From: Naegleria gruberi | Taxonomy: Eukaryota | Length of the DNA stretch: 64,000 bases | Assembly (NCBI GenBank): GCA_000004985.1 | Contig: GG738873.1 | Strand: one strand, 5' to 3' | Shown here: piece after piece, positions 1-15,288 of the stretch | Layout of the letters: each line of letters starts with the position of its first letter | How positions within the stretch are numbered: the stretch's first letter is position 1 | Position numbers and translations under genes: made by a program | Notes under the pieces: generated by a model | What the model saw: the letters and a program-made list of their open reading frames with translations, nothing else | Told to the model about the DNA's origin: nothing | The model's database searches: none

Positions 1-1
1 A

Positions 2-751
2 GAATATTTCTACCTGTACGGAGGGGTGGTAAATAACACTATCTCTAATGCTATCCATAGATGCAAAACATCTGATCTGGAAAGTGGATGGGAGCTTACT
101 AGATTCAAACTTCCTTATAATGTATCAGCTGGTCAATCATTACTGGTAGATGACTTTTTCTATATTTTTGGTGGTCTTGTTAGTCTAAGTGATGACTCTG
201 ATAGCCCAAAGTTAAGTCTCAACGTTACTGACATGATTTTGAGATTCCACATCTCTAATCCCTTCACTCCTGAAATACTATCACAAAGATTACCACTAGG
301 TGTTTATAGTGGTCAAATTGCTAGAGTTAAGGATTATTTGTACATATTTGGGGGAAGAACTCAAGATCCAAATGCACCATACAGCGATATCTTGAAAGCG
401 TCCTATTTCAAACCTACCGTATTTGAAAACTCTTACTCTGTTTTGCCATACCAAGTTACAGATGGTTCGTTAATAGTTACAGAAAACTTTGTTGTTATAT
501 TTGGTGGCTTTTACAGTGGTCTTTACCCATACAATGCAGGAAGATTCAACTATGAAATTGTATCAACCCCATCTGATGAGCCTGTTGGTTCTTGGATGGT
601 GACTGATTATAAGATTCCAGGATTAATGAGGGCGACCCCTTCAATCATGGGTTCAACACTTTCTCTGTTCGGAGAGGATGTCAGAATGGTCAACACATTC
701 CCTCTCTCCAACAGAACTTTCACCATGTTTAACTGCACATTCTTGTTGTAA
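2..751 (+). CDS. Kelch-repeat beta-propeller protein, C-terminal portion; the 5' end lies outside the window
   Basis: The frame is open from position 2 (EYFYLYGGVVNNT...). The track 'M' at 26 is a GTG. Kelch blade motifs recur about every 50 aa (FYLYGG, FYIFGG, LYIFGG, VVIFGG) with W/Y-rich strands, giving at least 4 blades. Several N-x-S/T sequons are present. TAA stop at 749-751, with AATAAA shortly downstream. Confidence 0.6.
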   Translation, partial: EYFYLYGGVVNNTISNAIHRCKTSDLESGWELTRFKLPYNVSAGQSLLVDDFFYIFGGLVSLSDDSDSPKLSLNVTDMILRFHISNPFTPEILSQRLPLGVYSGQIARVKDYLYIFGGRTQDPNAPYSDILKASYFKPTVFENSYSVLPYQVTDGSLIVTENFVVIFGGFYSGLYPYNAGRFNYEIVSTPSDEPVGSWMVTDYKIPGLMRATPSIMGSTLSLFGEDVRMVNTFPLSNRTFTMFNCTFLL

Positions 752-1152
752 TAAAATTGTAAATTATTCTGTCATCAATCAATGACCTTTGTTGAACAGA
801 AAATAATTGTAATGTGATCATTTAATAGATTGAAGGTACAAAATGTTTTGTTTGGTCCTTTTCTAATTAAGGAGTAGAACTAAAACAGAAAGTGTTGATG
901 GAAAACTTTAAAACCAACAAACTCAAAGAAGAATAAAAAAAAACCAATAGTTTAATATAGAATGCTTTCTAATATGAGGGACGATGAGACCACAGAGAGA
1001 GGTGGTTTTGATGATTACCAGGAACCTTTTGACCAATTTCTTGAGAGCAGAAAAAGAAATTTGTCAGAATTATATAGAGATGTACTATAGACATCCAAGA
1101 TGAAGATCAAGTTACGGTTTCGGGATCGTCGAGAAAAATTTACTCAACACGT

Positions 1153-1398
1153 GTGTCTATTAAGAAATCTGACATTGAACTGAATTCCCTAGATGACATC
1201 AGTGACATGCCGCTACCACAACCTTTTTTTAAGCTAATAGAGAAATCCAAAATTCTATATTTGGATATTGGTACTGGTTCTTTCAAGTCTGGTAAGACAA
1301 TCACGGGTGAGTTCATACGGAGTAACTTTCATATATTTGAAAATGGTTTGCAATATTTTCCATACCAGCTACTATACCACAAGGAAAAGAAAGAATAG
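1153..1398 (+). CDS. ORF carrying an actin-fold (ASKHA/Hsp70-type) phosphate-1 motif; probable 5' exon or tandem N-terminal duplicate of the following ORF
   Basis: ILYLDIGTGSFKSGKT resembles the Hsp70 IDLGTTxS phosphate-1 loop. The track start is a GTG; the first in-frame ATG is at 1204 (MPLPQPFFKLIEKSKILYLDIGTGS). Strong donor-like GGTAAGA (1291) and GGTGAGT (1306) lie just after the motif. I could not find a phase-compatible splice to the next ORF. Confidence 0.3.
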   Translation: MSIKKSDIELNSLDDISDMPLPQPFFKLIEKSKILYLDIGTGSFKSGKTITGEFIRSNFHIFENGLQYFPYQLLYHKEKKE

Positions 1399-1975
1399 TG
1401 AAGAAGATACCGATTCACAAGGACACACTATGTACTTGGACCTAGGACACGGTACGACTGATTATACTGTCATGTCATATGATCAAAACCAAAAGAAATT
1501 CATTTTGAAAGATAGTGGTGGGTGGCCTTCTGGACTCTCATGGATTCAAAATTTGATCATGAGAGAGAAGAATTTAACTTTTCAAGAAGCCACCAAACTA
1601 CTAAATAAGCAATTCGACTCACTAGATTCCAATCCTGTTGACGGTATTGCTGATATTCAAGAAAAGATTTATAATGAGTTTGAGAAATTATTACAACCTT
1701 TGTTGTTGGTAATTTTTGAAAATTCAGTTACAAAGGTTTGCTTTGTAGGTGCTTTCATTCATTGCCAATACTTTAGAGAGATTATTAAGAAAATAATTTC
1801 ACACTCTTACATTTCCAAATTTGTAGAGGAAAGAAGAAAGTATTTCAAGGAAGAATTCAAGTTAAAGAAGTTGGAAAAGTTTTCCATCTTCTTCCCTCCA
1901 AAGGCAGGTGCTAGTTGCATCATTCAAGGCTTGATGCGTATGGTTGAGAATTCAAATGGACTCAACCACTGTTAA
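1268..1975 (+). CDS. Hsp70-like truncated ATPase (actin fold); the likely true start is the ATG at 1430
   Basis: MYLDLGHGTTDYTVMSYDQNQKKFILKDSGGWPSG parallels the Hsp70 N-terminus IDLGTTYSCVGV...DQGNRTTPS. The C-terminal part (VCFVGAFIHCQYFREIIKK...FFPPKAGASCIIQGLMRM) parallels Hsp70 LVGGSTRIP...NPDEAVAYGAAIQAAIL. The middle of the nucleotide-binding domain is absent, so this is about 180 aa instead of about 380. Confidence 0.45.
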   Translation: MVLVLSSLVRQSRVSSYGVTFIYLKMVCNIFHTSYYTTRKRKNSEEDTDSQGHTMYLDLGHGTTDYTVMSYDQNQKKFILKDSGGWPSGLSWIQNLIMREKNLTFQEATKLLNKQFDSLDSNPVDGIADIQEKIYNEFEKLLQPLLLVIFENSVTKVCFVGAFIHCQYFREIIKKIISHSYISKFVEERRKYFKEEFKLKKLEKFSIFFPPKAGASCIIQGLMRMVENSNGLNHC

Positions 1976-2227
1976 TTGAAAAAGAATCAACCAGTGACAA
2001 TTCAGTTCCAGTGATGTTACAAGAGATTGCCGAAGAGGGGCAGAAACTTGTTCTTACACCCACATGGGCCTCCTATGTTATGCACGTACTTCAAGATTTC
2101 GAAGTATTCGTCATTACATTGAGCTCTTGTATTGACCCTGAAAGCTTTGAAAATATTAATTTTGATAATTTCAAATACCTTGGAATAAACTAAGCTCCAA
2201 AGATTGGCAGCTGTCACACCCATGTTT

Positions 2228-2836
2228 GATAGAGACTCCATAAGAACAACCAAGAATAATTTTTTGGTCAATGCAGTCATTGATGCAGAAAAAGTGAGAC
2301 TCAACTTCTTCTTTTCTCATGTATCTCACTATTACATGAGTGTATTAGACATTAATAGAACTGGTAGAGTAGAACATATTCCAGTCTGTGGTATTGAACT
2401 ATTGGTATTCAAGGTTCGTGAAACTGAAACCAAGACATGGTATGGTCGTAATTATTATGTGAAAACCATTATTAGAGTGTGTTGCTCCAACCACTTAAAC
2501 AATTCACAAAATCTCATTCCACAGGAATATATTGGCATAATTTCTCCACAAAAGAAAAATGGTAAATATGTTACTGAACTTATTGGTGAGGATAAACCTG
2601 GTGATTATGATACTGTGAAAGCTCTACTGGATTCATTATGTGTTGGTTGTTCCGCAGAGCTTGAGGAAACCAACACCATTCATACAGTGTCCCCACACAC
2701 ATTACCTAAATACCGACGAGCTTTGCAAAATAATAAGCTAATTTGTGGTAATGTCTGCAACAAATGTTACTCAAAATATTGCAACTCATTTAGGACAGAT
2801 GCTTCCTTTTTAAAGAAAAAGAAGTCTAAAAAATAG
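2228..2836 (+). CDS. Hypothetical protein: Cys-rich C-terminal cluster and polybasic tail
   Basis: The track ORF starts on TTG at 2204; the first ATG is at 2228 (MFDRDS...). C-terminal motifs: CVGCSAELEE...LICGNVCNKCYSKYCNSF (C-x2-C ... C-x3-C-x2-C-x4-C) and a KKKKSKK tail. TAG stop at 2834-2836, followed by an A/T-rich 3' region with AATAAA. No recognisable family. Confidence 0.35.
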   Translation, partial: DRDSIRTTKNNFLVNAVIDAEKVRLNFFFSHVSHYYMSVLDINRTGRVEHIPVCGIELLVFKVRETETKTWYGRNYYVKTIIRVCCSNHLNNSQNLIPQEYIGIISPQKKNGKYVTELIGEDKPGDYDTVKALLDSLCVGCSAELEETNTIHTVSPHTLPKYRRALQNNKLICGNVCNKCYSKYCNSFRTDASFLKKKKSKK

Positions 2837-3324
2837 TCTTGTAAAATACTTGTAAATAATAAATTAAAATAATATATCAAATTGTTTAAAATGGTACCAT
2901 TTTTTCATTGAGGAAAGCTCGCTTCTTCTAATGAATGTTTCTCATGGAATAGATAATTATTTGGTAGATAATGGATGAATGACATGATGAAAATCTGATA
3001 ACAAATATGATGTTTATCAAATAGTACCTCTTTTAATATTCAATGTTCATCATCTTTGGATATCTTTGTTCTATTTCACCCATAATTCGCCAGCCCGCTA
3101 ACAGTTTTCACAAATCTGCCACCCATGTAATGGCACTCCATCCTTCAGGTGGATTTCTTCTCATTATTCAGTTCTTCTTTCTTGGTTCATACTTCAGGTG
3201 GTAAATCTTCTTTCTCCTCCTTTAATACTTTTTTTAACCAATAAAAACGAAAACAATGAGCAAGTACGCCCTTAATGATTGTGTTATAGTCTGTCTAACA
3301 AACCAATCAACAGAACTTTCAAAA

Positions 3325-3925
3325 ATATTTCAAAAATATTGGATCAACATCAGGTACATCATGCCTCTGTTGATTCTTGGAGTAGTTTCACATCTATTAA
3401 CTCCAAGAATTTCACCACATCATCTCATCATCATTTAAATAGTAGTATTAATAGTAATTTTTGGAATTTAATTGTTCATCATGATTTGGAAATAATTTTA
3501 TTATTCGGAAACATTCAAGTTGGTACATCATCATCGGAACAACTACCAACCATCATCATTGTTATTTATCATCATTACAATAGTAATATTTGTGGAAATA
3601 AATCTGATAATAGTAATATTTTAGTGAAATTCAATATTTTTCACTAAAATCATCATCACTACCAGATTTATATGATAATTTAGAAAACTTTCAATCTAGT
3701 ATTGTTCAGCATGGTCGATATATATTAGGTAAAATTACTTCCGAACATTTCCCTATTGGTTATCATAATGTTAGGTACATGTATATATTTCAACACCATA
3801 TCTCAACCTGTACTTCACCAACTTGAAAAATGTCTTTCATCACTACTATTCAAATACATAATAAACAATATATTTATTATCAGATTTTCCTAGTTTTGTG
3901 TTTTTACCAACTTCGGGTATTCATA
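3325..3925 (+). repeat. Direct-repeat copy A (about 600 bp, His-codon-rich CATCAT stretches); homologous to 8957-9560
   Basis: Collinear blocks are shared with copy B, for example gtttcacatct, aatagtagta(tt)aatagt, ccaaccatcatca, atttgtggaaat(a)aat, ttttcactaaa(a/t)tcatcatca, agtattgttc(a/g)g(c/a)atggtc(g/a)ata, tgtacttcaccaa, ataataaaca..atatttattat. About 70-75% identity by eye, same orientation. Confidence 0.7.
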
Positions 3926-5195
3926 GTCACCAATCATTATTCATGCCAAAAGTACACAGTCAATCTTCTTGGAACATTAATAAACTTTTATTAGTACTAT
4001 TGCAGATGTACAATATCAATTATTTCGTATTGTTTCGTTGAAATCATGAAGATCTTGATTTTTCTGTTTTTAATTAAATTTCACATCACATACACCATAT
4101 TTGTTGATAGTTACATATTCGCATTACCAAACCGAATTTATTTAGTACGCATAAATTTTATTCAATTTTATTGGTAAAATTATGCGAATTATTACGAATA
4201 AAAATACTATTTATTATTGTATTTTTAAATTAATTAACTGAAAATTATTGCCAATATTTATGGGTAATAATTCATGCAGAATGAAAATTGGTTGAGAGCA
4301 ATAAGACCTGGAAATCTGATCACACTGCACACACTATTAATCTTTGAAAGAAGAAGTGGCAACTGAGTGAATAAATAATTTGAACATAATGATTCGTAAC
4401 ACAACTCTCCAAGCACAAAAATTTCATCACAACAAACAACAGTATCCCTAATTGAGATATCTTCCCAATAAATCTATCGAATTGAATATACATTCCAACC
4501 TTAAGTGAGGATTTTCTAGCATAAAAAGTGCACAATCTTCAAAAATGTGTTGCCCAATGATAATTCGGAAATTGGCCATTTTCTTTTACAAAACAATACG
4601 GATTGAAATTTTGTAAATTGGATCAAAAGTTGAAAATAGATTCTTCTTTCTACAAAGGAGGTTTTTATTGTAAATTAAAAAGCTTTTTTCCATTTGGAAG
4701 AGTATACTTTGTTGATATTTCAATTAAATCATCCATTGCTTACTTTTAAATCTCTCTTCTTCCCAAGATTGTTCGTTTACACCTTTCCTTGCAATTCTAT
4801 TTTGTTTAGAATCTGCAATTTTAGGTAATTCAGGTAATTTCTCAACAATATCTTTCATTTCTGAATGCTCTCTCCTTTTAAATGAGTGTACACTCGCTTC
4901 AGGGCATTTAACAAGGTATTCATCAAATATTTTTGAAAATTAAGGTTGATTTTCTTTGTTTTGTATATTCTTTTTTTCAAAATATTCTTTTAGTGTTAAG
5001 CACATGTGTTTTGTGATTGCTTGATCATTCGTTCAAAATTAATCTCAAATGAAATTGCTGCAAATCCATCTTCTTGTTTGTATTCAAAATTAATCATTGC
5101 TTTTTTCCTTTCGAGTAATATGTATAGTAACAAGGAATTTCGCTAAAAGTTGATTCAGGGACCATGTATTTCAACATATCTCTAAGGAAATCGTA

Positions 5196-5580
5196 CCCAC
5201 TTTTACAAAATATCAAACACCAAATCATATCTGTGGCAATGTTTTTCCCACTTTTTTCTAGTGCTCCCTCTTTAAAAGAGGATATGCTTGGTTAAAGTCA
5301 CCACCACAAAATTCAATATTCGATATTAAGTAGTTGAGCGAAAAATCACTTTTCCCAAAAAGGTATATGATTTCATAACTCACTAATTATCTCAATTAAA
5401 ACAAAAGATTAAATATTCAAAAATGACCAGGATATAGTATACATGATATGAAACCATCCATGCAAAATTCAAGATTTATACCATGAATCAAACTACATAT
5501 TTCCTTTTAAAGAGGGTGCACTAGAAAAAAGCGGGAAGATATGGCACATCCGATTCTTTGTGAAATATTTCCGAAACTGG
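5196..5580. repeat. Foldback / MITE-like inverted repeat (about 85-bp arms, about 210-bp loop)
   Basis: The reverse complement of 5196-5285 (..catatcctcttttaaagagggagcactagaaaaaagtgggaaaaacattgccacagatatgatttggtgtttgatattttgtaaaagtgg) aligns with 5496-5580 (catatttccttttaaagagggtgcactagaaaaaagcgggaagatatggcacatccgattctttgtgaaatatttccgaaactgg) at about 80% identity. Confidence 0.5.
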
Positions 5581-6111
5581 AATTATTGAAAAGGGAGTTT
5601 CAATTGTATTAGCAATCAAATTAACTTTCCTGTCTTTTCACCTTCAAACATTGCTTTGAACAACTTACTGTAATTTTCAACAAGGAAAAAATTCATCAAG
5701 TTTGATAAAAAATAGAAAAGTTTCATCTACAATATTCTTGCATCTGCTCACACAATTCCCACCACAAACATGTTGATGGTAATATCACATCGTTGTTTCT
5801 TGTCCCTTTCTGGTTGGAGGGCCGTCAATTGCAGGAATTGTTGATTATTATTGGATGGTATTATTGTTGTTGGTTTAACACTTAGTGGAGAGGCTACAAC
5901 AAATTTAATCATCCCAAAGTGACTCTACTCTTCCAATCTATTCAAGTTTCAACATTGTGTGTTGTGGATATATTACATTATTGAGATACACACATGTATT
6001 ATTGAGATGATTAGTTGAGTGGATGATATTTCTTCAGTTAATTCTGGAATGAAGAAGGGAAAAACACTGGAAATCATTTTGGATAAAGTTATGTGATTTT
6101 AAGAGAATAGT

Positions 6112-6283
6112 AACATAGCAAGACTAGCTGGTGGAGAATTTTTAAGCTTACCATCCCAGCGCTGGGATGGTCAAAACCAGCTAGACAACATCAAAAACTC
6201 GCGACTAAAAATAATCAGCTGGTAAAAACTGACTTCGCAGATTTCAAGTAGCCAAAAAACAATTTTCCAGTCTTGCTATGTTG
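6112..6283. other. Compound nested palindrome, including a perfect 20-bp palindrome ccatcccagcgctgggatgg (6151-6170)
   Basis: Outer inverted repeat: aacatagcaagactag (6112-6127) pairs with ccagtcttgctatgtt (6268-6283), 15/16. Inner repeat: (ga)ctagctgg(tgg) pairs with ccagctag(aca). Centre: the perfect palindrome ccatcccag|cg|ctgggatgg. The region is GC-richer than its surroundings and lies about 400-550 bp upstream of the YR start. Confidence 0.4.
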
Positions 6284-6670
6284 AGGATAGGGATGAACCT
6301 TTTAATATTTGTCATAAGTGATTGAACAGTATTGTTAATTTGAGTTGATTAATTTTCCAATTAATTGTGTCAAGAGTTGATTTTTTGAAATAAGCTCTTG
6401 CAAAGTTAACATGTATATTCTAGAGAATTCCCATTGGTGGCAGTAACAAATTTTTTTGTCAATACACAAATTCAAAGTTTAAAAAATAATTGTGAAAAAG
6501 ATAAAATGTTATTTTTCTTTACTGTGCAACAGTGGCAAAACATTTCCACCACGAGTGAGGTACGAACGAGCTGGTGGATGATTTTTGCGCGATTTGTTGC
6601 GAAGTAAGAACAGCACTTTTTCTCACGAACAAATATTCCACTGATCTCTGGATATTATTCATTCAAAAAA

Positions 6671-7942
6671 ATGTCTCAAGAGGTTGATGATCTTGCCAGC
6701 GACCTGTTGCTAGAAGAGTTTGATAGTCTCACTGTAACAGGGGAGCAGTCTTTCAACTTTGTTCTTGGAGAAAATAGTATTCAAGCAGTCAAAACAAGGA
6801 AAAACTACAACAATCACAATATGGCACTCAAGGATTTTGCTCTTGAAAATCCAGATGTAAATCTGCAAGATTTACAGGTTGGTTGGTTGAAAGATTATTT
6901 TCAATTCCTCCATCAGAATAAGAAAGTAACTGGTCAAACATTATGGCAATATCACTCCAGTCTTGCAAAGCTGTATGCATGTAATTACAATCTTTCGATT
7001 AAGAATGTTGCCAATTATTCAGTTCTGTCTAGTTTCATCAAAGAATTAGAGAAAAACAGTGTAGACAGCACCGCAGGTGCTGAAGATATTCCATTAAGCA
7101 CAGTAATTGGTGTTCTCTCTCAATACCCAGAAGATGGATCAAATATTATGAAAAAGGCTTTTTTTGTATTCACCACAATAAGCTGTAAGAGATGTGATGA
7201 TGCTCATTGTTTACAATTTCATCATTTAACATTCAAAGAAGATTCAATCGATTTTGATATCTCACAAACTGCAACCAATCCAACTTCCAAAAAAACCAAG
7301 ACAGATGCCTGCACTGGTTGTATTGTCAAAAGCAATGTTCTAGAAATATGTCCCTTTAGAATTTTTAAGAAATACACTGATCAAATTGAAGACAAGAAAG
7401 GTCCTGTATTTAGGAGATGGGTTGGTAAAAAGGGTGGTGGTTATTTCGGAAAACAAGCAGTTGGTATTAACACCATGTACAGTTTCTTCCAAGATATTTT
7501 GAAAAGTGTTATTGAAGTATGTCCAGAGGACATACAAATTGAAGAAAGAACTGGTGCTAGAGCACCAGAACACCTTCGTTCCAACAAGACATCCACAAAA
7601 ATTGGTCTTGCTCGTTATACAGGACACACAGGAAGAAAAACAGCTGGTACCATCATTTCCACCATTGCTGCAATGACTGATCTTGAAAGAAAGAAATATG
7701 GTGATTGGAAGAATATGAAAACGGTTGAAACCTACAGCAACAACAATCCTGAAACCAGAAAAATTGCTAGCAAGAAGGTTGTTGATCATTTATCAGATGC
7801 TTTTAAAAGATCCAATGATGAAGAAGAAGAAAGTCAATATGCTCCTGTAGCAAAAAAGAGCAAGTCTTCCGAATCAAGCTTCAGTAATGATGGAAAGACA
7901 TTCGTCTTCAAAAACTGCTCAAATATCACAATAAACTTCTAA
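6671..7942 (+). CDS. Tyrosine recombinase (site-specific integrase, Cre/Crypton-like); intact 423 aa
   Basis: ATG start in an A-rich context, TAA stop, no interruptions. N-terminal integrase SAM-like core-binding domain (..KNYNNHNMALKDFALEN..LQVGWLKDYFQFL..TGQTLWQYHSSLAKLY). Catalytic hexad recognisable by Cre spacing: R174 (ISCKRCDD), K~210 (SKKTKTD), H319-x-x-R322 (TGHTGRKTAG), W346 (YGDWKN) and Y355 (TVETY). H to W is 27 residues and W to Y is 9, versus 26 and 9 in Cre. Confidence 0.8.
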   Translation: MSQEVDDLASDLLLEEFDSLTVTGEQSFNFVLGENSIQAVKTRKNYNNHNMALKDFALENPDVNLQDLQVGWLKDYFQFLHQNKKVTGQTLWQYHSSLAKLYACNYNLSIKNVANYSVLSSFIKELEKNSVDSTAGAEDIPLSTVIGVLSQYPEDGSNIMKKAFFVFTTISCKRCDDAHCLQFHHLTFKEDSIDFDISQTATNPTSKKTKTDACTGCIVKSNVLEICPFRIFKKYTDQIEDKKGPVFRRWVGKKGGGYFGKQAVGINTMYSFFQDILKSVIEVCPEDIQIEERTGARAPEHLRSNKTSTKIGLARYTGHTGRKTAGTIISTIAAMTDLERKKYGDWKNMKTVETYSNNNPETRKIASKKVVDHLSDAFKRSNDEEEESQYAPVAKKSKSSESSFSNDGKTFVFKNCSNITINF

Positions 7943-8956
7943 CATTTTTATTTCCAGTAAAAAGTGGTGTTATGCACTCATTTATGCCAGCACAGTTGGA
8001 ACTCGGAACAAGAAGAAATAAGCAAGGACGCTGTTATGCACTCACTGTTCGGAGAGGATTATGTTAACTCGCGAGCAGTCCATAACAGGTCCTGGAGTGA
8101 GAAAAAACAATTTAATTTAATCGTAAGTTAGATTTTAATAGCTAATAGTTTGTTTAATTTTAATGTTCAGATTGATGAAATAGTGTTGAACTGTTGCCGA
8201 GCTTATAAGAAGAAGAATTTGAAAGAATTGACGGTGTGCCGGTAAATCCTGTCTAACGGGATCCGTCAGATGTAATAAGCTGTCAAATGGGACAGTCAGC
8301 AGTAAGAGGGAGCAAGAATGGAATTAAGGGAAATACTAAAAATTCTCAATTGTAGAATAATCACTAAAATCAAAGATTACACTCTTTCTGTCTCAAATTT
8401 AAGAATGACATGATATAATTTGACTAAATTGATTAAAACACTGTTGGGGAACTACCCTTCTTTTTTAGAGAAGTTTCCTTCTCAAACAATTCAGGTAAAT
8501 AGTAAACTGTGGAAAGTTTAAATTTGATTTTTTATTGAAAATGAAAAATATGGATTAATTGATATGAGTGTGATTACTATAATGTGCAAGATGTTGAAAA
8601 AGTTGGTTATCTTTGAAATTCAATTTAAAAGTGCACTAAGAAAGCAAATGCTGAACTAGATGAGTTGATACAAATAAACGGTGAGACGGGCAACGGGATG
8701 AACGGGATTCAGGCGTTTCTTATTCTAAACGGGAGATTCTCTCCGCTTAATACTACAAGGTGGCAATTCAAATATGGAGAGAGAGCTTAGTAACATTAAT
8801 AAAATGAATGAGACATAATTACTTTTTGAATTTTCCTTTTATATTTGAAACTTTGACTCTGCTTACTTTCAATTGTTTGTTTAATATGGCTTGCTTGACT
8901 GAAGAATAAGCAATAACTAACACATCCAAACATCACCAGACTGGATTTTGAAGAAA

Positions 8957-9560
8957 AAATATTTCAACATCTAGTACGTGATGTACTTTGATGATTTACG
9001 GAGTGGTTTCACATCTTTATACCACAATAATTTCAGCTCGTCATCTCTACATCATCTATATAATAGTAGTAATAGTGATTTTTTATTGGAAAATTATCAT
9101 CATGAAATTAGAAATTATTTTTCATCATGGAAAAATTCATGTTGGTGATACCATCATCTGATCATTTACCAACCATCATCAATGATATTTTCCATCGATA
9201 TAATAATAGTATTTGTGGAAATTAATTTTCAGTAATTTAATTTTAGTTGAAAATCACCATTTTCACTAAATTCATCATCAGTGTGGAATCTACTGTACAA
9301 ATTGGAAATCTGTCAACATAGTATTGTTCGGAATGGTCAATAGTATCAGAAAAGATTTTGTCCGATGACTTTTGGTCAAGTTATGATAGGGAAAGGTATG
9401 TGTGAAATTTGAAAATACACATTATACTACCCATCATGTACTTCACCAAATCAAAAAGTTTCTTCTAGTAGTACTATTTAAATTGATAATAAACATCATA
9501 TTTATTATAATTTATTCCTTTTCTTTTGTGTTGGTCAAGTTCCGGTTGGGTTGACTAAGA
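8957..9560 (+). repeat. Direct-repeat copy B, homologous to 3325-3925
   Basis: Same collinear anchor blocks as copy A, offset by about 5.62-5.63 kb. Copy B lacks the long His-rich ORFs seen in copy A, so those ORFs are not conserved coding sequence. Confidence 0.7.
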
Positions 9561-10071
9561 ATTGGTTATTTACTCGCCCAAATTAAATTTCCAAATCATG
9601 TAACTTTCCCATGTATTAGTAAATATCAAATTAATAATAAATTTCACTTTTTTTTTAATTTTTTATATAAGGCAGTCCTTAACACTCTTTTTTTCCCTTA
9701 ATTCTAAATAACTCTTGGATCAGATGACGAAACCTGAATTTTTTGAATAATTATGGATATATATAAATAATGACAATGCTACTAACTGTAATTGACATGT
9801 TTTATTATTTGCGAATAAACTTGAAACAAATCTATTCAAAGATTTGCTAATTTGTTAGTTGAAATTACAAAATCAAACAATGAAACTTGATCTGGTAACA
9901 TATATAAATGCACACATCGAGTGGGGAAAGTTTCATGAAATAATAATGTGAAATTTGATCTTGGGAATGAAATCGTTAAGAACAAGTAGATTAAAGCCAA
10001 CAACAAATGGAATAGCCTATTTTATTCAATTCATATTAGAACAATTTTAGAATGTTACTGTGTTATTGAGC

Positions 10072-10716
10072 TTAATATAATTTAGACTTCAAATGTAACA
10101 TTTCCATCATCTTTTGCAAGCCTTTGGATTGAATTTCTTGTAGACGAGGATAGTTACGAGAGTTGTGAATGACAGATTCAAATCGAGCCATCAAAACTTG
10201 AACTCTATTCAACAACGCCTCATTGGAAGAGTAATGACGAAGTGTTTTGGTTGAGACAAAACTTATGACATCTCCATCGGATAGTCTATCACCAACTTCG
10301 TAGTTACGTCTAATCTCCTTGATAGTAGTTAGACCCCAATGTTTACCAGTGAAATCCTCATCAGCGGATTCCTCATCAAGGTCTTCATCAAGTTGATTAG
10401 CTTGTTGCAGAATAGGAGGAACAGCTTCAAGATGCTTTATTCTCTCACCCAAAGAAGTGATGGCGTTGAAAATAGCATCAAGGTTCTTTTCAGAACCAGC
10501 TTGGTTGTTATCCAAGGTTTTGCTTGTTGGGTCAACCACAGAGGGGAGTGAAGCTGAGCTACCATTGTCAGTTACTAGGATGTAACCTGACTTGTAGGTA
10601 GAAGTTGAAGATTTGCTTACTGAAACTCTTTGACGAATGTTGGAGATATTCGCTTTGCTTGGTGTTTGAACCATTTCAATATACTTAATTTTTTTGAGCA
10701 TAAAATTATTTATCAA
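10072..10716 (-). CDS. Hypothetical protein (about 214 aa, Ser/Thr-rich N-terminal part, acidic middle); probably the terminal exon of a minus-strand gene
   Basis: Long ORF of non-repetitive composition ending at a TAA. The track start is a TTG; the first ATG gives MLKKIKYIEM. Upstream on the minus strand a GAC-AAG|GTAATA donor-like site (about 10823) and ..ATTGAG|TTG acceptor-like site (about 10717) could join the 10775-10963 ORF. No family recognised. Confidence 0.45.
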   Translation of the reverse strand: MINNFMLKKIKYIEMVQTPSKANISNIRQRVSVSKSSTSTYKSGYILVTDNGSSASLPSVVDPTSKTLDNNQAGSEKNLDAIFNAITSLGERIKHLEAVPPILQQANQLDEDLDEESADEDFTGKHWGLTTIKEIRRNYEVGDRLSDGDVISFVSTKTLRHYSSNEALLNRVQVLMARFESVIHNSRNYPRLQEIQSKGLQKMMEMLHLKSKLY

Positions 10717-10778
10717 CTCAATTTTATTGTTTACAATTTGTCGAAATGCTAACGTTGCATCGTTCCTCGCAACTCTAC
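10628..10778. repeat. About 150-bp segment (5' end and first codons of the 10072-10716 gene) duplicated at 13243-13390
   Basis: ..ctttgcttggtgtttgaaccatttcaatatacttaatttttttgagcataaaattatttatcaactcaattttattgtttacaatttgtcgaaatgctaacgttgcatcgttcctcgcaact.. is near-identical to the 13243-13390 copy. Confidence 0.7.
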
Positions 10779-10963
10779 ATTATTGAATCTTCTGTAGCCT
10801 TGTTGATTGTTGGATTGATAAGTATTACCTTGTCCTTGGTTGAAGTTGTTGTAGTTGTAGCCAGCTTGTCTAGTATTGTATCTAGTGAGGAACTTACGAA
10901 AATTAAGGGTTCTGCTAGCCCATTTGCTGACTTTTTCAATAGTTTCTGTGTTTGAATGGGCAT
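10775..10963 (-). CDS. Possible upstream exon of the 10072-10716 gene (MPIQTQKLLKKSANGLAEPLIFVSSSLDTILDKLATTTTTSTKDK...)
   Basis: Short ORF whose 3' part contains AAG|GTAATA, a consensus-like donor, in frame. Otherwise unsupported. Confidence 0.2.
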   Translation of the reverse strand: MPIQTQKLLKKSANGLAEPLIFVSSSLDTILDKLATTTTTSTKDKVILINPTINKATEDSIM

Positions 10964-11826
10964 TAAAAATGACTTTGAAGCAGCTGAAAACTTCTCTAAC
11001 AGCTACAAATCAGGAGGTTCACTTAACCAAATCACCTCCAAACAACAAGAGAAGACGATTAAATCTGCTGAAAAAGTAAAAACAGCAGAAGATTAGATTT
11101 AACTCAGAAATATTCTAAATAAATTCAAATCCTTGAAGAATAAGTGGTAAATCAAGAATATCACTCTCTCAAACGCTTGCAGATTTCAATGACTCACCAA
11201 ACATTCTTTGGTAAGAGTCGATGATGTGGTTTTTAAACCAATCATCTAGTTCATCAGCAACTCTTGCACTTTTACCAGAAACCTCTTCAGATGGGTTGGA
11301 CTCAAACAATTCCATCGAAGAAGCGAGAGTAGAAGTACTTTGTGAACCAACCTTGGCGTTGTTTGAGTCTTTGTCAGGTGATATCTTTTGCTGATTGTTC
11401 TTTTTCGTGTCTTGAAGGCATAGCAGAACTATTAGATGAATTTGAGGTGGAAGGAGTTAGAATAATAACTCGTTTCTCGCTACCTGCAGAAGGTGAGCTA
11501 AGGTCTTTCGTTTTCTTGTTGTTCTTTGGTGTAGTTGGTGTTTTGTAATTCTAGAGTGAAACAATTTGTTGAACGTGTAGAATGTATGTGTTCTGAATGA
11601 TTATAATAAATTGAATGTTATTTGCTTAAATTTATTGAGTTTCATGTTCAAAAAATTTATCTAAACTAAATGTCTTCAAGAAACATTTTAACTTCTGCTT
11701 CTAAAGCAAGAAATGATAGGTCCCACCCTGTTCTTATCGAAGTTTACTGAGATAAAGTAGTGTTTCTTGAAAACAACAATTGAATAAACTAATAATAGAA
11801 AGTATGCTCAAAAAAATTGTCATACT

Positions 11827-12954
11827 ATGGTCGCTAAGAAGCCTCAAGATATTGACTCCTCTTTATCTGATGAAGATCTCCCAGCAGTTGAAGTAGAATA
11901 CCTCATAACACTAGTGAAAGCAAGAAAACAACAAGCTGCTAAGAAGCTTAGAAAGTTAAAGGCCATGTCACCTGTAGCTAATAGAAATAAGCGCAAACAA
12001 TTTACTTCAGTTTCATCATCTAACAGTGCCTTAGATGATGGTATTTCAACTGTTGTTTCCAGTTCGTTGTTAAACAATTCAACATTGTTGGATAGTTCTT
12101 CAACTGCACCCTCTTCGTCAAACAATTCGTCTTCTTCCAATTCAGGTAGAGATAGTTTTACCAGTAGTTCATCTGAACATGATATCATGGTGATCAAAGC
12201 CCAAATGCAAGAAATGATTGGAGTTTTGAGAACCGTAACAGGAAATATCTCTGAACTTACTAAGAAAGTTCAGGAGAGAGAAGAAGAATCAGATGATGAT
12301 TTTGTTAATCCAGAAGCTATATCTTTAGAAGTTTGGTTACGTCAAACTTATAGAGACCTTAGAAGTTCTTACAATGTTCCTTCATCTATTGGAGATGATT
12401 TATTACTTTCTGCAGTATCCTCCGAGATACTTAAAGACCGTAAACAAGAGGAGACCAAGAGAAGAATTCAATATTTGCTCCTTAAATACAAGGATGTGAT
12501 TTCCAAGTTTGCCCCAGACATTAGATTGGATGAGATTAACAGTATTGGTTATTCTAAACTAGTAGAGTTAACTCAAATCAAAATTGAATTGTTGGAATAT
12601 GCATTGAATTCTCCACTTGATTTTACAGTCATGACAGAGATTACAGAACTTTGTAGAATGATTTGCAAAGTTGAAGCCCTCTTCCTTAAAGAAGGTTTAC
12701 AAGTTTCCACTTTCGATGTTGGTAGAGAATTCCTTAACAGATACATTTCTACTAATAGTTTCGAAACTGCTGCCGAAAGTGAACTTCATAATATTAGAAC
12801 AACATATCATTACTACAAAGCAACCAAGCAGCAACAAGGTCCAAAGGGAATTACCAAGAAGTATTCTAAGAAGAAACCGTTTCAAAAGAAAAACAATAAG
12901 GGTCAAGGAAACGATGGTAAATTCCAAGGAAAAGATAAGGATAAGTCAGAATGA
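11827..12954 (+). CDS. Hypothetical Ser-rich / Lys-rich protein (375 aa), intronless
   Basis: True ATG start (ctATGgtcgct) and TGA stop. The N-terminus is acidic with a basic stretch (KARKQQAAKKLRKLK). A long Ser/Asn low-complexity region is followed by a predicted helical C-terminal half and a polybasic tail (KKYSKKKPFQKKNNKGQG). No family recognised. Overlapping ORFs on the opposite strand are treated as shadows. Confidence 0.5.
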   Translation: MVAKKPQDIDSSLSDEDLPAVEVEYLITLVKARKQQAAKKLRKLKAMSPVANRNKRKQFTSVSSSNSALDDGISTVVSSSLLNNSTLLDSSSTAPSSSNNSSSSNSGRDSFTSSSSEHDIMVIKAQMQEMIGVLRTVTGNISELTKKVQEREEESDDDFVNPEAISLEVWLRQTYRDLRSSYNVPSSIGDDLLLSAVSSEILKDRKQEETKRRIQYLLLKYKDVISKFAPDIRLDEINSIGYSKLVELTQIKIELLEYALNSPLDFTVMTEITELCRMICKVEALFLKEGLQVSTFDVGREFLNRYISTNSFETAAESELHNIRTTYHYYKATKQQQGPKGITKKYSKKKPFQKKNNKGQGNDGKFQGKDKDKSE

Positions 12955-13130
12955 CTCTTCCACTAATAAAGATTTTTATCCAATCAAAGCAGGTTCTATA
13001 ACTGAATCACCAATTTGGTGAAACAGTTACCTGACTCTAAAACCCATTTGTCTCTAATCAATTTGTTACTCTTTTTATTATAATCTATGAAGAACATTTA
13101 ACTTGATAAATTTTTCAAATTATAAATATT

Positions 13131-13180
13131 ATTTCTCCAAATAAAACAATAAAGAATTTCGTTGATAAACCAATGGGTAG
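13131..13180 (+). repeat. 48-bp perfect direct repeat, copy 1 (atttctccaaataaaacaataaagaatttcgttgataaaccaatgggt)
   Basis: 47-48 nt identical to 13394-13443, separated by about 263 bp. Confidence 0.8.
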
Positions 13181-13242
13181 AAGCTCACTCAACATATTCT
13201 TCATCCAAAGGATGAGGTATGTTGCTCGGAAATGCTGCCTTT

Positions 13243-13390
13243 TAGGTCATTGACTTTATTCAGCAATGATTTTGCTTGGTGTGTTTACCATGTTTCTTAA
13301 TTTTTTTGAGCATAAAAATTATTTATCAACTCAATTTTATTGTTTACAATTTGTCGAAATACTAACGTTGCATCGTTCCTCGCAACTAGC
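13243..13390. pseudogene. Degenerate pseudo-copy of the 5' end of the 10072-10716 gene
   Basis: About 80% identity to 10628-10778. The reverse-complement reading has a 1-nt insertion (aatttttatgctc versus aattttatgctc) that destroys the ORF. It carries a consensus TACTAAC (13360-13366) followed by ..cgcaaCTAG on the plus strand. Confidence 0.55.
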
Positions 13391-13393
13391 CAT

Positions 13394-13443
13394 ATTTCTC
13401 CAAATAAAACAATAAAGAATTTCGTTGATAAACCAATGGGTTA
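13394..13443 (+). repeat. 48-bp perfect direct repeat, copy 2, abutting the stop codon of the YR relic
   Basis: Identical to 13131-13178. The last 3 nt (tta, 13441-13443) are the reverse-complement TAA stop of the minus-strand YR fragment. Confidence 0.8.
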
Positions 13444-13680
13444 GTCCAGAGAAAATAGAGTGTTAGTGAAATTCTTGCCAGCTAGGCCTTCAGATCTAAG
13501 GTAAGGAAATAAACTTTTTTCCTTTTTATGTCTTGCACCGACCATTAGATCAGTTGTAGACATACCCTTTCTGAGTCCTTCTGTGATAGCACCTATTCTA
13601 AGGCTGTGACCTGAGACTGTTACGCCTTGATCTACTATACCCACTGCATTCTTTAGTATTTTTGAAATACCATCTGAATC
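13441..13680 (-). pseudogene. Tyrosine-recombinase C-terminal catalytic fragment (integrase/DIRS-like H-x-x-R...H...Y variant); 5'-truncated relic or terminal exon
   Basis: The open frame is only about 80 codons (..DSDGISKILKNAVGIVDQGVTVSGHSLRIGAITEGLRKGMSTTDLMVGARHKKEKSLFPYLRSEGLAGKNFTNTLFSLD*). GHSLR is the box II H-x-x-R. The second His is 26 residues after the first, and the Tyr (FPYLR) is 9 after that, which is exact integrase/Cre spacing. The track start is a GTG and a stop lies immediately upstream. AT-rich non-coding DNA and microsatellites follow on the 5' side. Confidence 0.6.
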
Positions 13681-13780
13681 TTAGTAGTACCGTTTCAGTT
13701 TTACCTAGTTGTAATAAACACCGGAAATTTATTTATGTTTTTAACTATAAAAGCTGAAAGTAGTCAAATGTTGATATTTG

Positions 13781-13782
<2 letters not shown>

Positions 13783-13812
<30 letters not shown>
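13783..13812. repeat. (AT)n microsatellite, about 15 units
   Basis: Seen directly in the sequence. Confidence 0.9.
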
Positions 13813-13815
<3 letters not shown>

Positions 13816-14301
13816 AATAGATGTTAGATATTAGTTGTTCCATTTATTTTTAAACCTATCACTCCATCAACCTCCATGAATCTAGTTGTCTATTTCTTGT
13901 TGTAAGAGTTTTTCTTTGTTTTAATAAACAACTATCACAACTCTAATTTTACTACTTCTAATAGCAGTGTTTTTGTAATATTTTTACAAAGTTTGTTCTT
14001 TCTTTGAATTCATTTTCTTTGGATTTACCATAAAGATTATTACTTCCAATCAATAATCTTCATAATGATAATACCAACTTTAGAAGATTTTTAAAAATTA
14101 ATGGTTTTTTATATTTTATATATTACTTTGTTAAGCTTTTCTAAATTTCAAATCGATAAATTTTTGAAAATTTATTTTAGCTTCTTAATTTTCAATTAAT
14201 TTCATTATCTTTATATCTAAATCACTTTTAAATGCTTTTTCAGATAAACCAATTAAACCACCATCTTATAAACCAACTTGCAACAAAAATTTTTTCGGAT
14301 G

Positions 14302-14327
14302 TATATATATATATATATATATATATA
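14302..14327. repeat. (TA)n microsatellite, about 13 units
   Basis: Seen directly in the sequence. Confidence 0.9.
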
Positions 14328-14366
14328 AATGCATGCGAAAATTTTTATTTTATTTATATTAAATAT

Positions 14367-15288
14367 CTAATATGACAAACATATCCCACCAACGCATGTA
14401 TGAAAATTCGTATTTTTNNNNNNNNNNNNNNNNNNNNNNNNNNNNNNNNNNNNNNNNNNNNNNNNNNTATTATATGTGAAATTACCAATTGTAATATTAT
14501 TGCTTGTAAAGTTACTAATTGTAAAGTTACTAATTGTAATGTTATCACTCGTAAGGTTACGGATTGTTAAATTAGTATATGTGAAATTACCAATTGTAAT
14601 GTTATCACTTGTAAAGTTACTATTTGTAAAGTTACCAATTGTAATATTATCACTCGTAAGGTTAGTGTTTGTAAAGTTACTGCTTGTTGAATTAGTATAT
14701 GTGTAATTACCAATTGTAATATTATCACTTGTAAAGTTACTATTTGTAAAGTTACTGATCGTTAAATTAGTATATGTGTAATTACCACTTGTGGTATTCT
14801 CATATGTAAAATTATAATAGGTAAAATTGTTGAGTGTCAAATTCGGTATTTCCGTAATTCTCATCACCTCGTTTTCTGGATAATTTGCATCATTTTGGCA
14901 ATTTTGTCCCGTAATAGAATTTCTAAAACATTTACAAAAATCAGGCTTGGTACAATTACCATTTCCACTGCAAACAAGTGGATCTTCTGATTTAACACCA
15001 AAACAAATTGGTAAAGAACAATTTGATCCATAATATCCTTCTCTGCAAGTGGTTACATTTAAGAGACCTGTTGCATTCTTCTTGGAGCAAAGATACAAAT
15101 TATCACCTGTTGGGTTTGTACAATCAATTTCAAGATCAAGAGTTCCATTAATCTTTGTATTATTACATTTACCTTCAGGATTGGTACATGTCGCCATACT
15201 AACATTTGTTTGACACTGTGTGCCAATAAAACCAACTTTGCAAGAACATTGATTTGGTTTCTCACAATAACCATTTCCTGAACAAACC
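14367..15288 (-). CDS. Secreted or surface glycoprotein: EGF-like Cys-rich domains followed by a tandem N-x-T sequon repeat stalk; partial (runs into gaps)
   Basis: The frame is open from the 15289 gap, which lies upstream of the track 'M' at 15197. At least 3 EGF-like modules: VCSGNGYCEKPNQCSCKVGFIGTQCQ; CTNPTGDNLYLC..TCREGYYGSNCSLPIC; CSGNGNCTKPDFCKCFRNSITGQNCQ. About 40 N-x-T/S sequons follow in about 7-aa-period repeats (NFTNSNFTSDNITIGNFTYTN...). The gene is interrupted by the 50-N gap and ends ..HTCVGGICLSY* at 14367. Confidence 0.6.
14418..14467. other. Assembly gap (50 N) inside the glycoprotein gene
   Basis: Run of n. Confidence 0.95.
14468..14830 (-). repeat. Coding tandem repeat (about 21-nt / 7-aa period nested in about 75-120-nt higher-order units) encoding the N-x-T sequon array
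   Basis: Repeated blocks: ttgtaaagttact(a/g)(a/t)ttgtaa(a/t)gttatcact(c/t)gtaa(a/g)gttac.. and tatgtg(a/t)aattaccaattgtaat(a/g)ttatcac. The assembly gap sits at the repeat edge, consistent with collapse. Confidence 0.75.

Follow-up and report, generated by a model that had tools for sequence, protein, structure and literature searches.

Does an intact tyrosine recombinase (YR) gene, situated between two long direct repeats on the genome of Naegleria gruberi, form together with these repeats a mobile element of a new architecture? The question is raised by a stretch of 64,000 nucleotides (contig GG738873.1 of assembly GCA_000004985.1; hereafter the window). Real sequence is present at positions 1-15288, interrupted by a gap of 50 N at 14418-14467, and the remainder consists of N; the repeat and motif counts given below cover these ~15 kb. 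A first-pass annotation of the window had proposed a 6.2-kb mobile element, whose sole enzyme is the YR and whose termini are repeats of about 600 bp resembling long terminal repeats (LTRs). One part of this proposal stood, as the recombinase is real and free of reverse transcriptase (RT), while the repeats could not be upheld as LTR-like termini of one unit. With about even confidence, we favor a lone Crypton-like YR element, or the immobilised remnant of one, which is a compact unit lying among unrelated old repeats that are not its ends. According to our best reading, the gene is a heterolobosean addition to the known Crypton-like (YR-only) kind and new for Heterolobosea. In eukaryotes, elements of the Crypton type are rare and difficult to delimit, and their mechanism is untested; they are known chiefly from fungi, oomycetes, diatoms and animals. 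A catalytically intact-looking member in N. gruberi, with relatives in Acrasis kona and another protist, would extend the Crypton-like group into Discoba.

The recombinase and its family

The gene resides on the plus strand at positions 6671-7942. It starts with ATG, is open throughout a single exon and encodes 423 amino acids (aa), which are 100% identical over the 423 residues to an annotated NCBI entry named 'predicted protein [Naegleria gruberi]'. The matching protein comes from a scaffold of 461,873 bp, and the window appears to contain the last 15 kb of this scaffold or to adjoin a large gap. Only one copy exists in the annotated N. gruberi proteome. The protein is composed of an N-terminal SAM-like core-binding domain and a catalytic domain. 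Pfam detected only the first of them (PF13102, residues 39-102, E 7e-7), whereas PF00589 (Phage_integrase) was not matched by the N. gruberi protein itself in this search. The catalytic domain therefore had to be demonstrated by other means.

In an alignment of 18 family members, R174, H319 and Y355 did not vary at all, and R322 and W346 hardly varied; R174, K210, H319, R322 and Y355 were all invariant among the eight closest members. Thus, the R-K-H-R-W-Y catalytic set of tyrosine recombinases is complete and in the right order. An AF2 model built on the family alignment disclosed two domains (pLDDT 87.3, pTM 0.79) and was poorly defined only in the segment carrying the tyrosine. When the model was compared with the PDB by Foldseek, the top 29 matches were Cre chains (E down to 4e-7, target TM 0.56-0.63), followed by XerH, the integron integrase IntI, lambda Int, Flp and the Tn1549 integrase; QRICH1 emerged among the weak structural matches at rank 37. 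A sequence-only search of the PDB with the protein found nothing. While the predicted fold is closest to Cre, the sequence identity to this protein is only 12-15% and the host is a eukaryote. By its ordered catalytic residues and its two-domain fold, the protein belongs to the tyrosine recombinase superfamily (Cre/Int/Xer/Flp). The model indicates a genuine recombinase with a Cre fold that is apparently catalytically competent. The earlier description of the open reading frame (ORF) as intact, intronless and of the Cre type was borne out by the open single exon, the Cre-like fold model and the complete catalytic set.

Relatives were searched for by a HMMER scan of 1.84 billion representative proteins, which yielded 43 sequences, 42 of which were aligned. 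Profile searches gave, besides PF13102 in the N. gruberi protein, PF00589 in 28 of the 42 family members; none of the 42 matched RVT, RNase H, DUF3504, DUF3435 or GCR1_C. The closest relative (42% identity) is encoded on L001, a Logan contig of 1.6 kb, whose ORF is flanked by a perfect 18-nt inverted repeat (138-155 / 1614-1631). Since its right arm stops exactly at the end of the contig, this repeat is possibly longer. The named relatives originate from Acrasis kona, which is likewise a heterolobosean. At least four diverged intact copies of the recombinase gene are located there on three contigs; they share 57-60% DNA identity among themselves and are open over 300-400 codons despite this divergence. 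Two of these diverged genes lie tail to tail within 2.5 kb (L004, positions 1271-3781 of JAOPGA020001058.1).

Three further copies (L002, L007 and L008) were found in JGI sample 3300037860, which represents an unidentified protist. Ordinary eukaryotic genes (TPH, legumain, LCAT, FMO, ankyrin) are situated beside them. In all three, a conserved accessory ORF precedes the recombinase gene immediately (E 3e-7 and 3e-6 between copies); its product of 159-252 aa has no Pfam family. On L008, the accessory ORF and the YR gene make up a block of ~2.5 kb (2577-5070), which splits a single FMO-like gene between Pfam profile positions 106-214 and 290-467. The motif TGCCAAYRGTTTCT occurs there as an inverted pair at the left edge of the block and as a single copy at its right edge, and AATG, noted by eye only, is present at both edges of the insertion. 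The ends of the element family could well be defined with the help of this two-gene unit.

Long direct repeats around the recombinase gene were not found at any of six relatives' loci (L002, L004-L008). On L006, a shorter direct repeat, a pair of 63 bp, was present. We rejected it as a parallel to the N. gruberi repeats and as an element end, since it is a dispersed repeat also present on L005 and L004; it is embedded in sequence that reads by eye like a DDE-transposase pseudogene. No RT was found within the units of the relatives. The only RT in their neighborhoods is a fragment on L005, on the opposite strand and 5 kb away.

Two protein searches did not reveal homologues from N. fowleri or N. 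lovaniensis, and a profile search of an indexed protein database added only a distant 'uncharacterized protein' from an ant. By pattern search, no close relatives were detected in IMG/VR or in JGI metagenome contigs. A viral origin of the gene was dismissed on account of the ordinary eukaryotic neighbors of the metagenomic relatives and the lack of an IMG/VR relative in this search. Protein P0044, which had seemed to belong to the cluster of a relative, proved to be an Arf fragment, and its contigs do not contain a YR. A description of this recombinase family in Naegleria was not found in the searchable literature. The family is patchily distributed, free of RT and present in multiple copies in some genomes, and in these respects it behaves like a mobile family.

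These properties are reminiscent of Cryptons (Goodwin et al. 2003; Kojima and Jurka 2011, PMC3212892), which possess a YR only, neither terminal inverted repeats nor long direct repeats, and direct repeats of 4-6 bp at their ends (PMC3212892, PMC13465315). At the N. gruberi locus, the YR is likewise the sole transposition enzyme; the catalytic set is complete, and RT is missing there as well as from the 42 family members. Further common traits are relatives without terminal inverted or long terminal repeats, an accessory ORF in some of them, units of 2.5-4 kb, a patchy distribution with multiple copies in some genomes, and boundaries that are hard to see. The family differs from Cryptons in having no match to GCR1_C (CryptonF) or DUF3504 (CryptonA) and in its own conserved C-terminal tail (FKNC..NITINF in the N. 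gruberi protein, vF-NC...N-tINf in the family). Moreover, Cryptons were not found for Heterolobosea or Discoba in the searchable literature. The suggested Crypton-like assignment is one of architecture (YR only, no RT) and not of position in a tree with reference Cryptons.

The direct repeats and the interval between them

The two repeats, designated A (3332-3934) and B (8955-9562), are non-coding and have the same orientation. By BLASTN of the contig against itself, 3332-3918 aligned with 8955-9546 at 71.2% identity (607 columns, E 3e-87). A global alignment of the full copies gave 69.4% identity over 598 aligned sites with seven gap events. The presence of same-orientation repeats of ~600 bp on either side of the YR gene was thereby confirmed, and the former estimate of 70-75% identity came close to the measured 69-71%. 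The copies are separated by 0.39 substitutions per site (K), in addition to the seven indels. Both have stops in all six frames, their mismatches do not show codon periodicity (61/50/72), and neither matched Pfam, which rules them out as coding repeats. They were also discarded as parts of a larger segmental duplication, as no DNA or translated similarity extends past their limits, and as derivatives of a tRNA, a SINE or another RNA, since no tRNAs were detected and Rfam gave only one chance miRNA match far below threshold.

Each copy comprises two hairpins, at 3618-3650 and 3858-3882 in A and at 9240-9271 (with one indel) and 9484-9508 in B. The first hairpin of A has perfect 12-nt inverted arms and a 9-nt spacer and is thus lox-like; non-trivial sites of this kind number two in the contig, while 0.47 are expected. 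The palindrome motif of the repeats, ATTTTAGTGAAA, is confined to them within the contig. When we counted the runs of exact matches in the alignment of A and B, their lengths were roughly as expected at 70% identity and did not disclose a clear constraint.

LTR-type repeats are identical at insertion, and their divergence should be one that a neutral interior allows. For A and B and the gene between them, this does not hold. In a simulation of a neutral 1272-bp ORF, in which indels were ignored, the frame stayed open in 0.02% of the trials at K/2 and in 0.5% at K/4. Since the ORF is intact though the repeats have diverged to K = 0.39, the ORF and the repeats do not have one common neutral history. 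Two explanations are left for the ORF: it is far younger than A and B, or it is subject to a selection from which the repeats are exempt.

Between repeat A and the ORF, 2.7 kb consist of frame-broken minus-strand debris and an inverted duplication, and no element gene is found there. The decayed coding-like debris spans 4727-5570 on the minus strand; its three ORF pieces (5291-5097, 5142-4999 and 4939-4727) are in different frames, and a Pfam family was not found for any of them. The foldback repeat that had been noticed inside the interval is present. Its arms (5245-5286 / 5496-5537, inverted, 42 nt, 88%) are the core of an inverted duplication of the first debris piece (5208-5286 vs 5570-5496), and both core arms encode FKEGALEKSGK. 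A P-loop gene at this place was considered and rejected, as 'GALEKSGK' is no Walker A motif, belongs to no Pfam family and has no match in the loci of the relatives.

The interval was also searched for remains of a retroelement using six-frame translations of 2837-10100 outside the ORF, in which stops were masked as X (Pfam, E <= 0.1). No signal of RT, RNase H, methyltransferase or gag was obtained in any frame. The lone match, UPF0697 (E 0.008), reached 16.6 bits against a cut-off of 27 and is a sub-threshold chance match. Likewise, tblastn of the interval with the RT of the neighboring element family gave nothing. Both tests agree with the earlier statement that the repeats do not enclose an ORF for RT, RNase H or methyltransferase.

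Could the whole region 3332-9562 nevertheless be one YR-only mobile or integrative element, whose recombinase excises the 5.6-kb interval between att-like or LTR-like ends of 600 bp? The repeats have the same orientation and lie on either side of the one gene that is intact in the interval, the lox-like site of A is kept in B, both repeats are more structured than shuffled sequences, and the interior is without RT. On the other side, none of the relatives possesses such repeats and the best-delimited one measures 2.5 kb; a repeat divergence of 30% is incompatible with an intact ORF of equal neutral age; 2.7 kb of the interior are frame-broken debris of the opposite strand; the repeats do not contain the 17-mer found near the gene (see below), while their own palindrome motif is missing near the gene; and the run lengths in the repeats do not point to constraint. 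We consider this composite element quite unlikely. Even a little less probable, in our estimation, is a version in which a YR-only integrative element has A and B as its attachment or terminal repeats, diverged but still bearing their hairpins, with the recombinase acting on the 12-nt/9-nt palindrome and the gene kept by selection on the element or host. The two repeats are probably not the ends of the recombinase element. The LTR-like termini, and with them the new architecture, are not supported in view of the relatives without repeats, the divergence of A and B next to an intact ORF, the debris in the interior and the disjoint sets of motifs. To our knowledge, the combination of long terminal direct repeats with a YR and no RT in a eukaryotic element has not been described for Cryptons, DIRS, Ngaro or Starships. 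Instead, A and B possibly stem from a small element, non-autonomous or of the foldback type, of which they are two old copies, and both lie most likely outside the recombinase unit.

Palindromic sites and the probable extent of the unit

The compound palindrome noticed by the first-pass annotation (6112-6282) is located 390-560 bp upstream of the ATG. Perfect 14-nt arms (6112-6125 / 6269-6282) surround a perfect 22-nt palindrome (6150-6171); they additionally enclose a 9-nt inverted pair. The arms belong to two copies of the 17-mer AACATAGCAAGACTGGA, one at 6112-6128 and the other, inverted, at 6266-6282. By DNA and translated self-comparison, the compound palindrome does not resemble the ends of A or B. 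A further copy of the 17-mer, AACATCACCAGACTGGA, is situated on the plus strand at 8929-8945, at a distance of 987 bp from the stop codon upstream of it and of 10 bp from repeat B downstream, and is a direct repeat of 6112-6128. When up to three mismatches were allowed, the 17-mer had four matches in the contig, all within 6112-8945, while 0.06 are expected. It is not present in the repeats, nor is the palindrome motif of the repeats present near the gene.

We infer that the functional unit is probably compact, extending from about 6112 to 8945 (~2.8 kb) between copies of the 17-mer and excluding both repeats. The compound palindrome is a candidate left-hand site for recombinase binding or recombination, and 8929-8945 a candidate for the right-hand end. 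A unit of this size would be comparable to the 2.5-kb unit that interrupts the FMO-like gene on L008. Sites for chemistry of the Cre/Xer type have inverted arms of 11-13 bp and a spacer of 6-8 bp (PMC3212892); both the 12-nt/9-nt site of repeat A and the palindromes that precede the gene resemble this layout and are candidates by sequence. In line with the model put forward for Cryptons by Goodwin et al. (summarised in PMC3212892) and with the chemistry of Cre and Xer, dimers of the recombinase may bind the short inverted-repeat sites beside the gene. Recombination between short directly oriented sites would then excise the unit as a circle, which could be reinserted at a short matching sequence, so that no long terminal repeats are left. 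Being small, intronless and confidently modelled, and having candidate sites next to it, the recombinase should be tractable for examining this circle-excision model.

Several observations weigh against a compact Crypton-like unit among unrelated repeats. Its putative limits of 2.8 kb are set by a short motif with up to three mismatches in a single N. gruberi copy, and one of the four matches (6956-6972) falls inside the ORF. Both hairpins are kept in A and B with conserved arms and changed loops, and the single-strand folding of the repeats beats that of shuffled sequences (z -2.2 for A and -3.3 for B, with only 20 shuffles), so that the repeats are possibly functional DNA rather than junk. 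Repeat A starts 3.3 kb before the YR gene does, which is similar to the 3.1 kb between repeat and YR in L010, a member of the neighboring retroelement family. Finally, an intact ORF in an old setting is equally compatible with a co-opted host gene.

The latter explanation has to be weighed together with a conserved upstream motif. A palindromic motif, GTGGCAAAACATTTCCACCAC, is located on the plus strand at 6531-6553 (-133 from the ATG), and similar motifs were found at similar distances in the two closest flanked relatives (L001 at -144, L003 at -212); in all three genes the palindrome is of the AAACATTT type and lies ~130-210 bp upstream of the ATG. The motif is probably a promoter or binding site. 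Conserved flanks beyond it were sought between N. gruberi and L001 and discounted, as the local alignments were not significant (z 1.5 and 0.9) and only the AAACATTT-centered motif recurred.

If the gene were a domesticated, immobile derivative of a recombinase, neither the repeats nor the nearby motifs would be transposition sites. The promoter-like motif common to the two closest relatives fits such a host gene, as does the single annotated copy in N. gruberi; furthermore, an ORF that has remained intact while its surroundings decayed implies purifying selection. Animals and fungi offer well-documented cases of host genes derived from Cryptons (PMC3212892, PMC13465315), and fungal Gcr1 and the animal DUF3504 genes, e.g., ZMYM and QRICH1, are likewise single-copy intact genes of YR origin. 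In contrast to many domesticated Crypton derivatives, which lost their catalytic residues (PMC13465315), the N. gruberi protein has kept all of them, and it contains neither DUF3504 nor GCR1_C. No orthologue in N. fowleri or N. lovaniensis was seen in the two protein searches. Moreover, the family exists in multiple diverged copies in Acrasis and another protist, one of its units interrupts a gene, and the N. gruberi gene is located at a repeat-rich scaffold end. On balance, domestication has to be taken seriously but appears rather unlikely to us, and we prefer the compact Crypton-like element or its remnant.

Two minor features were seen downstream of the gene. Just past the stop codon, the motif (G/C)TGTTATGCACTCA occurs on the plus strand in two copies 64 bp apart (7967-8044; two matches vs 0.10 expected). 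Farther downstream, the GC-richer sequence AACGGGA(T/G) was noticed by eye four times in the 3' flank (~8256, 8692, 8701 and 8730; within 8256-8735).

YR retroelements and other repeats at the contig end

The end of the contig is a junkyard of transposable elements, including fragments of RT-bearing YR retroelements. In such a setting, unrelated repeats on either side of a gene are unsurprising. Positions 11729-12964 (ORF 11827-12954, plus strand) are 98% identical to positions 61-1287 of the environmental sequence L010 and stop just past its ORF1. L010 (1-4324) encodes an ORF1 product of 372 aa, an RVT_1 ORF of 637 aa and a YR ORF of 297 aa, and contains a 246-bp direct repeat of 97% identity. 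The ORF1 family (>90% identity) comprises seven or more annotated N. gruberi genes, which are spread over six or more scaffolds, and in the gene model EFC35816 (569 aa) ORF1 is fused to a YR. By sequence comparison, 11729-12964 can be assigned to a young YR retrotransposon present in multiple copies, of which this copy has lost the 3' part.

A second fragment is located on the minus strand. It comprises a C-terminal YR remnant (13680 to 13444), which is 51% identical to the YR of L010, followed by the sequences B (13441 to 13393), A (13387 to 13271) and again B (13178 to 13130) of a split repeat, a nomenclature unrelated to that of the 600-bp repeats. The two B copies are 100% identical, and the order B1-A2-B2 within 13130-13441 is typical of elements with split direct repeats. 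Another copy of this A sequence (10774 to 10654, 90%) carries the start of the gag-like ORF214 (10716 to 10072; 24% identity to ORF375). The YRs of these retroelements are unrelated at the BLAST level to the recombinase at 6671-7942. Degenerate DIRS1-like copies have been reported earlier in N. gruberi (PMC3266345), and the fragments of the contig fit this report. The contig shows that real repeat-flanked YR elements of the N. gruberi genome carry RT.

With such elements 1-6 kb away, the interval 3332-9562 might also be a worn-out YR retrotransposon of the DIRS/Ngaro type, having A and B as its direct repeats and the remains of gag and RT in the 2.7 kb upstream of the gene. Members of the DIRS/Ngaro/PAT/VIPER group combine a YR with direct (split) repeats, RT-bearing ones with direct repeats occur in the same contig and genome, degenerate copies are on record (PMC3266345), and the spacing of repeat and YR (3.3 kb vs 3.1 kb in L010) is similar. 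These elements, however, carry gag and RT/RNase H, of which no trace was obtained in any frame or by tblastn with the local RT. Their repeats are arranged as inverted repeats with internal complementary regions or as A1...B1-A2-B2, whereas the N. gruberi locus has one simple pair, and the repeats of the young L010 element are nearly identical (97%), while A and B share 70%. The recombinase is unrelated at the BLAST level to the retroelement YRs and belongs to a family whose 42 members are free of RT. Furthermore, a YR of such an age would have decayed along with the remainder, and the coding debris lies on the opposite strand. A decayed retroelement is therefore highly improbable in our view, and the compact Crypton-like element remains the preferred explanation.

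Annotated transposable elements are almost nil in N. gruberi (0.28%; bioRxiv 10.64898/2026.06.24.734286). A scaffold end that harbors a Crypton-like gene together with fragments of young YR retroelements is thus a useful entry point to the mobilome of this organism. Apart from mobile elements, the contig contains (AT)n microsatellites at ~13790-13812 and 14300-14330. Next to the gap of 50 N, an EGF-containing ORF on the minus strand (14468-14860) exhibits a tandem coding repeat with units of ~15 aa, whose NFT, NLT and NIT triplets are N-glycosylation-like.

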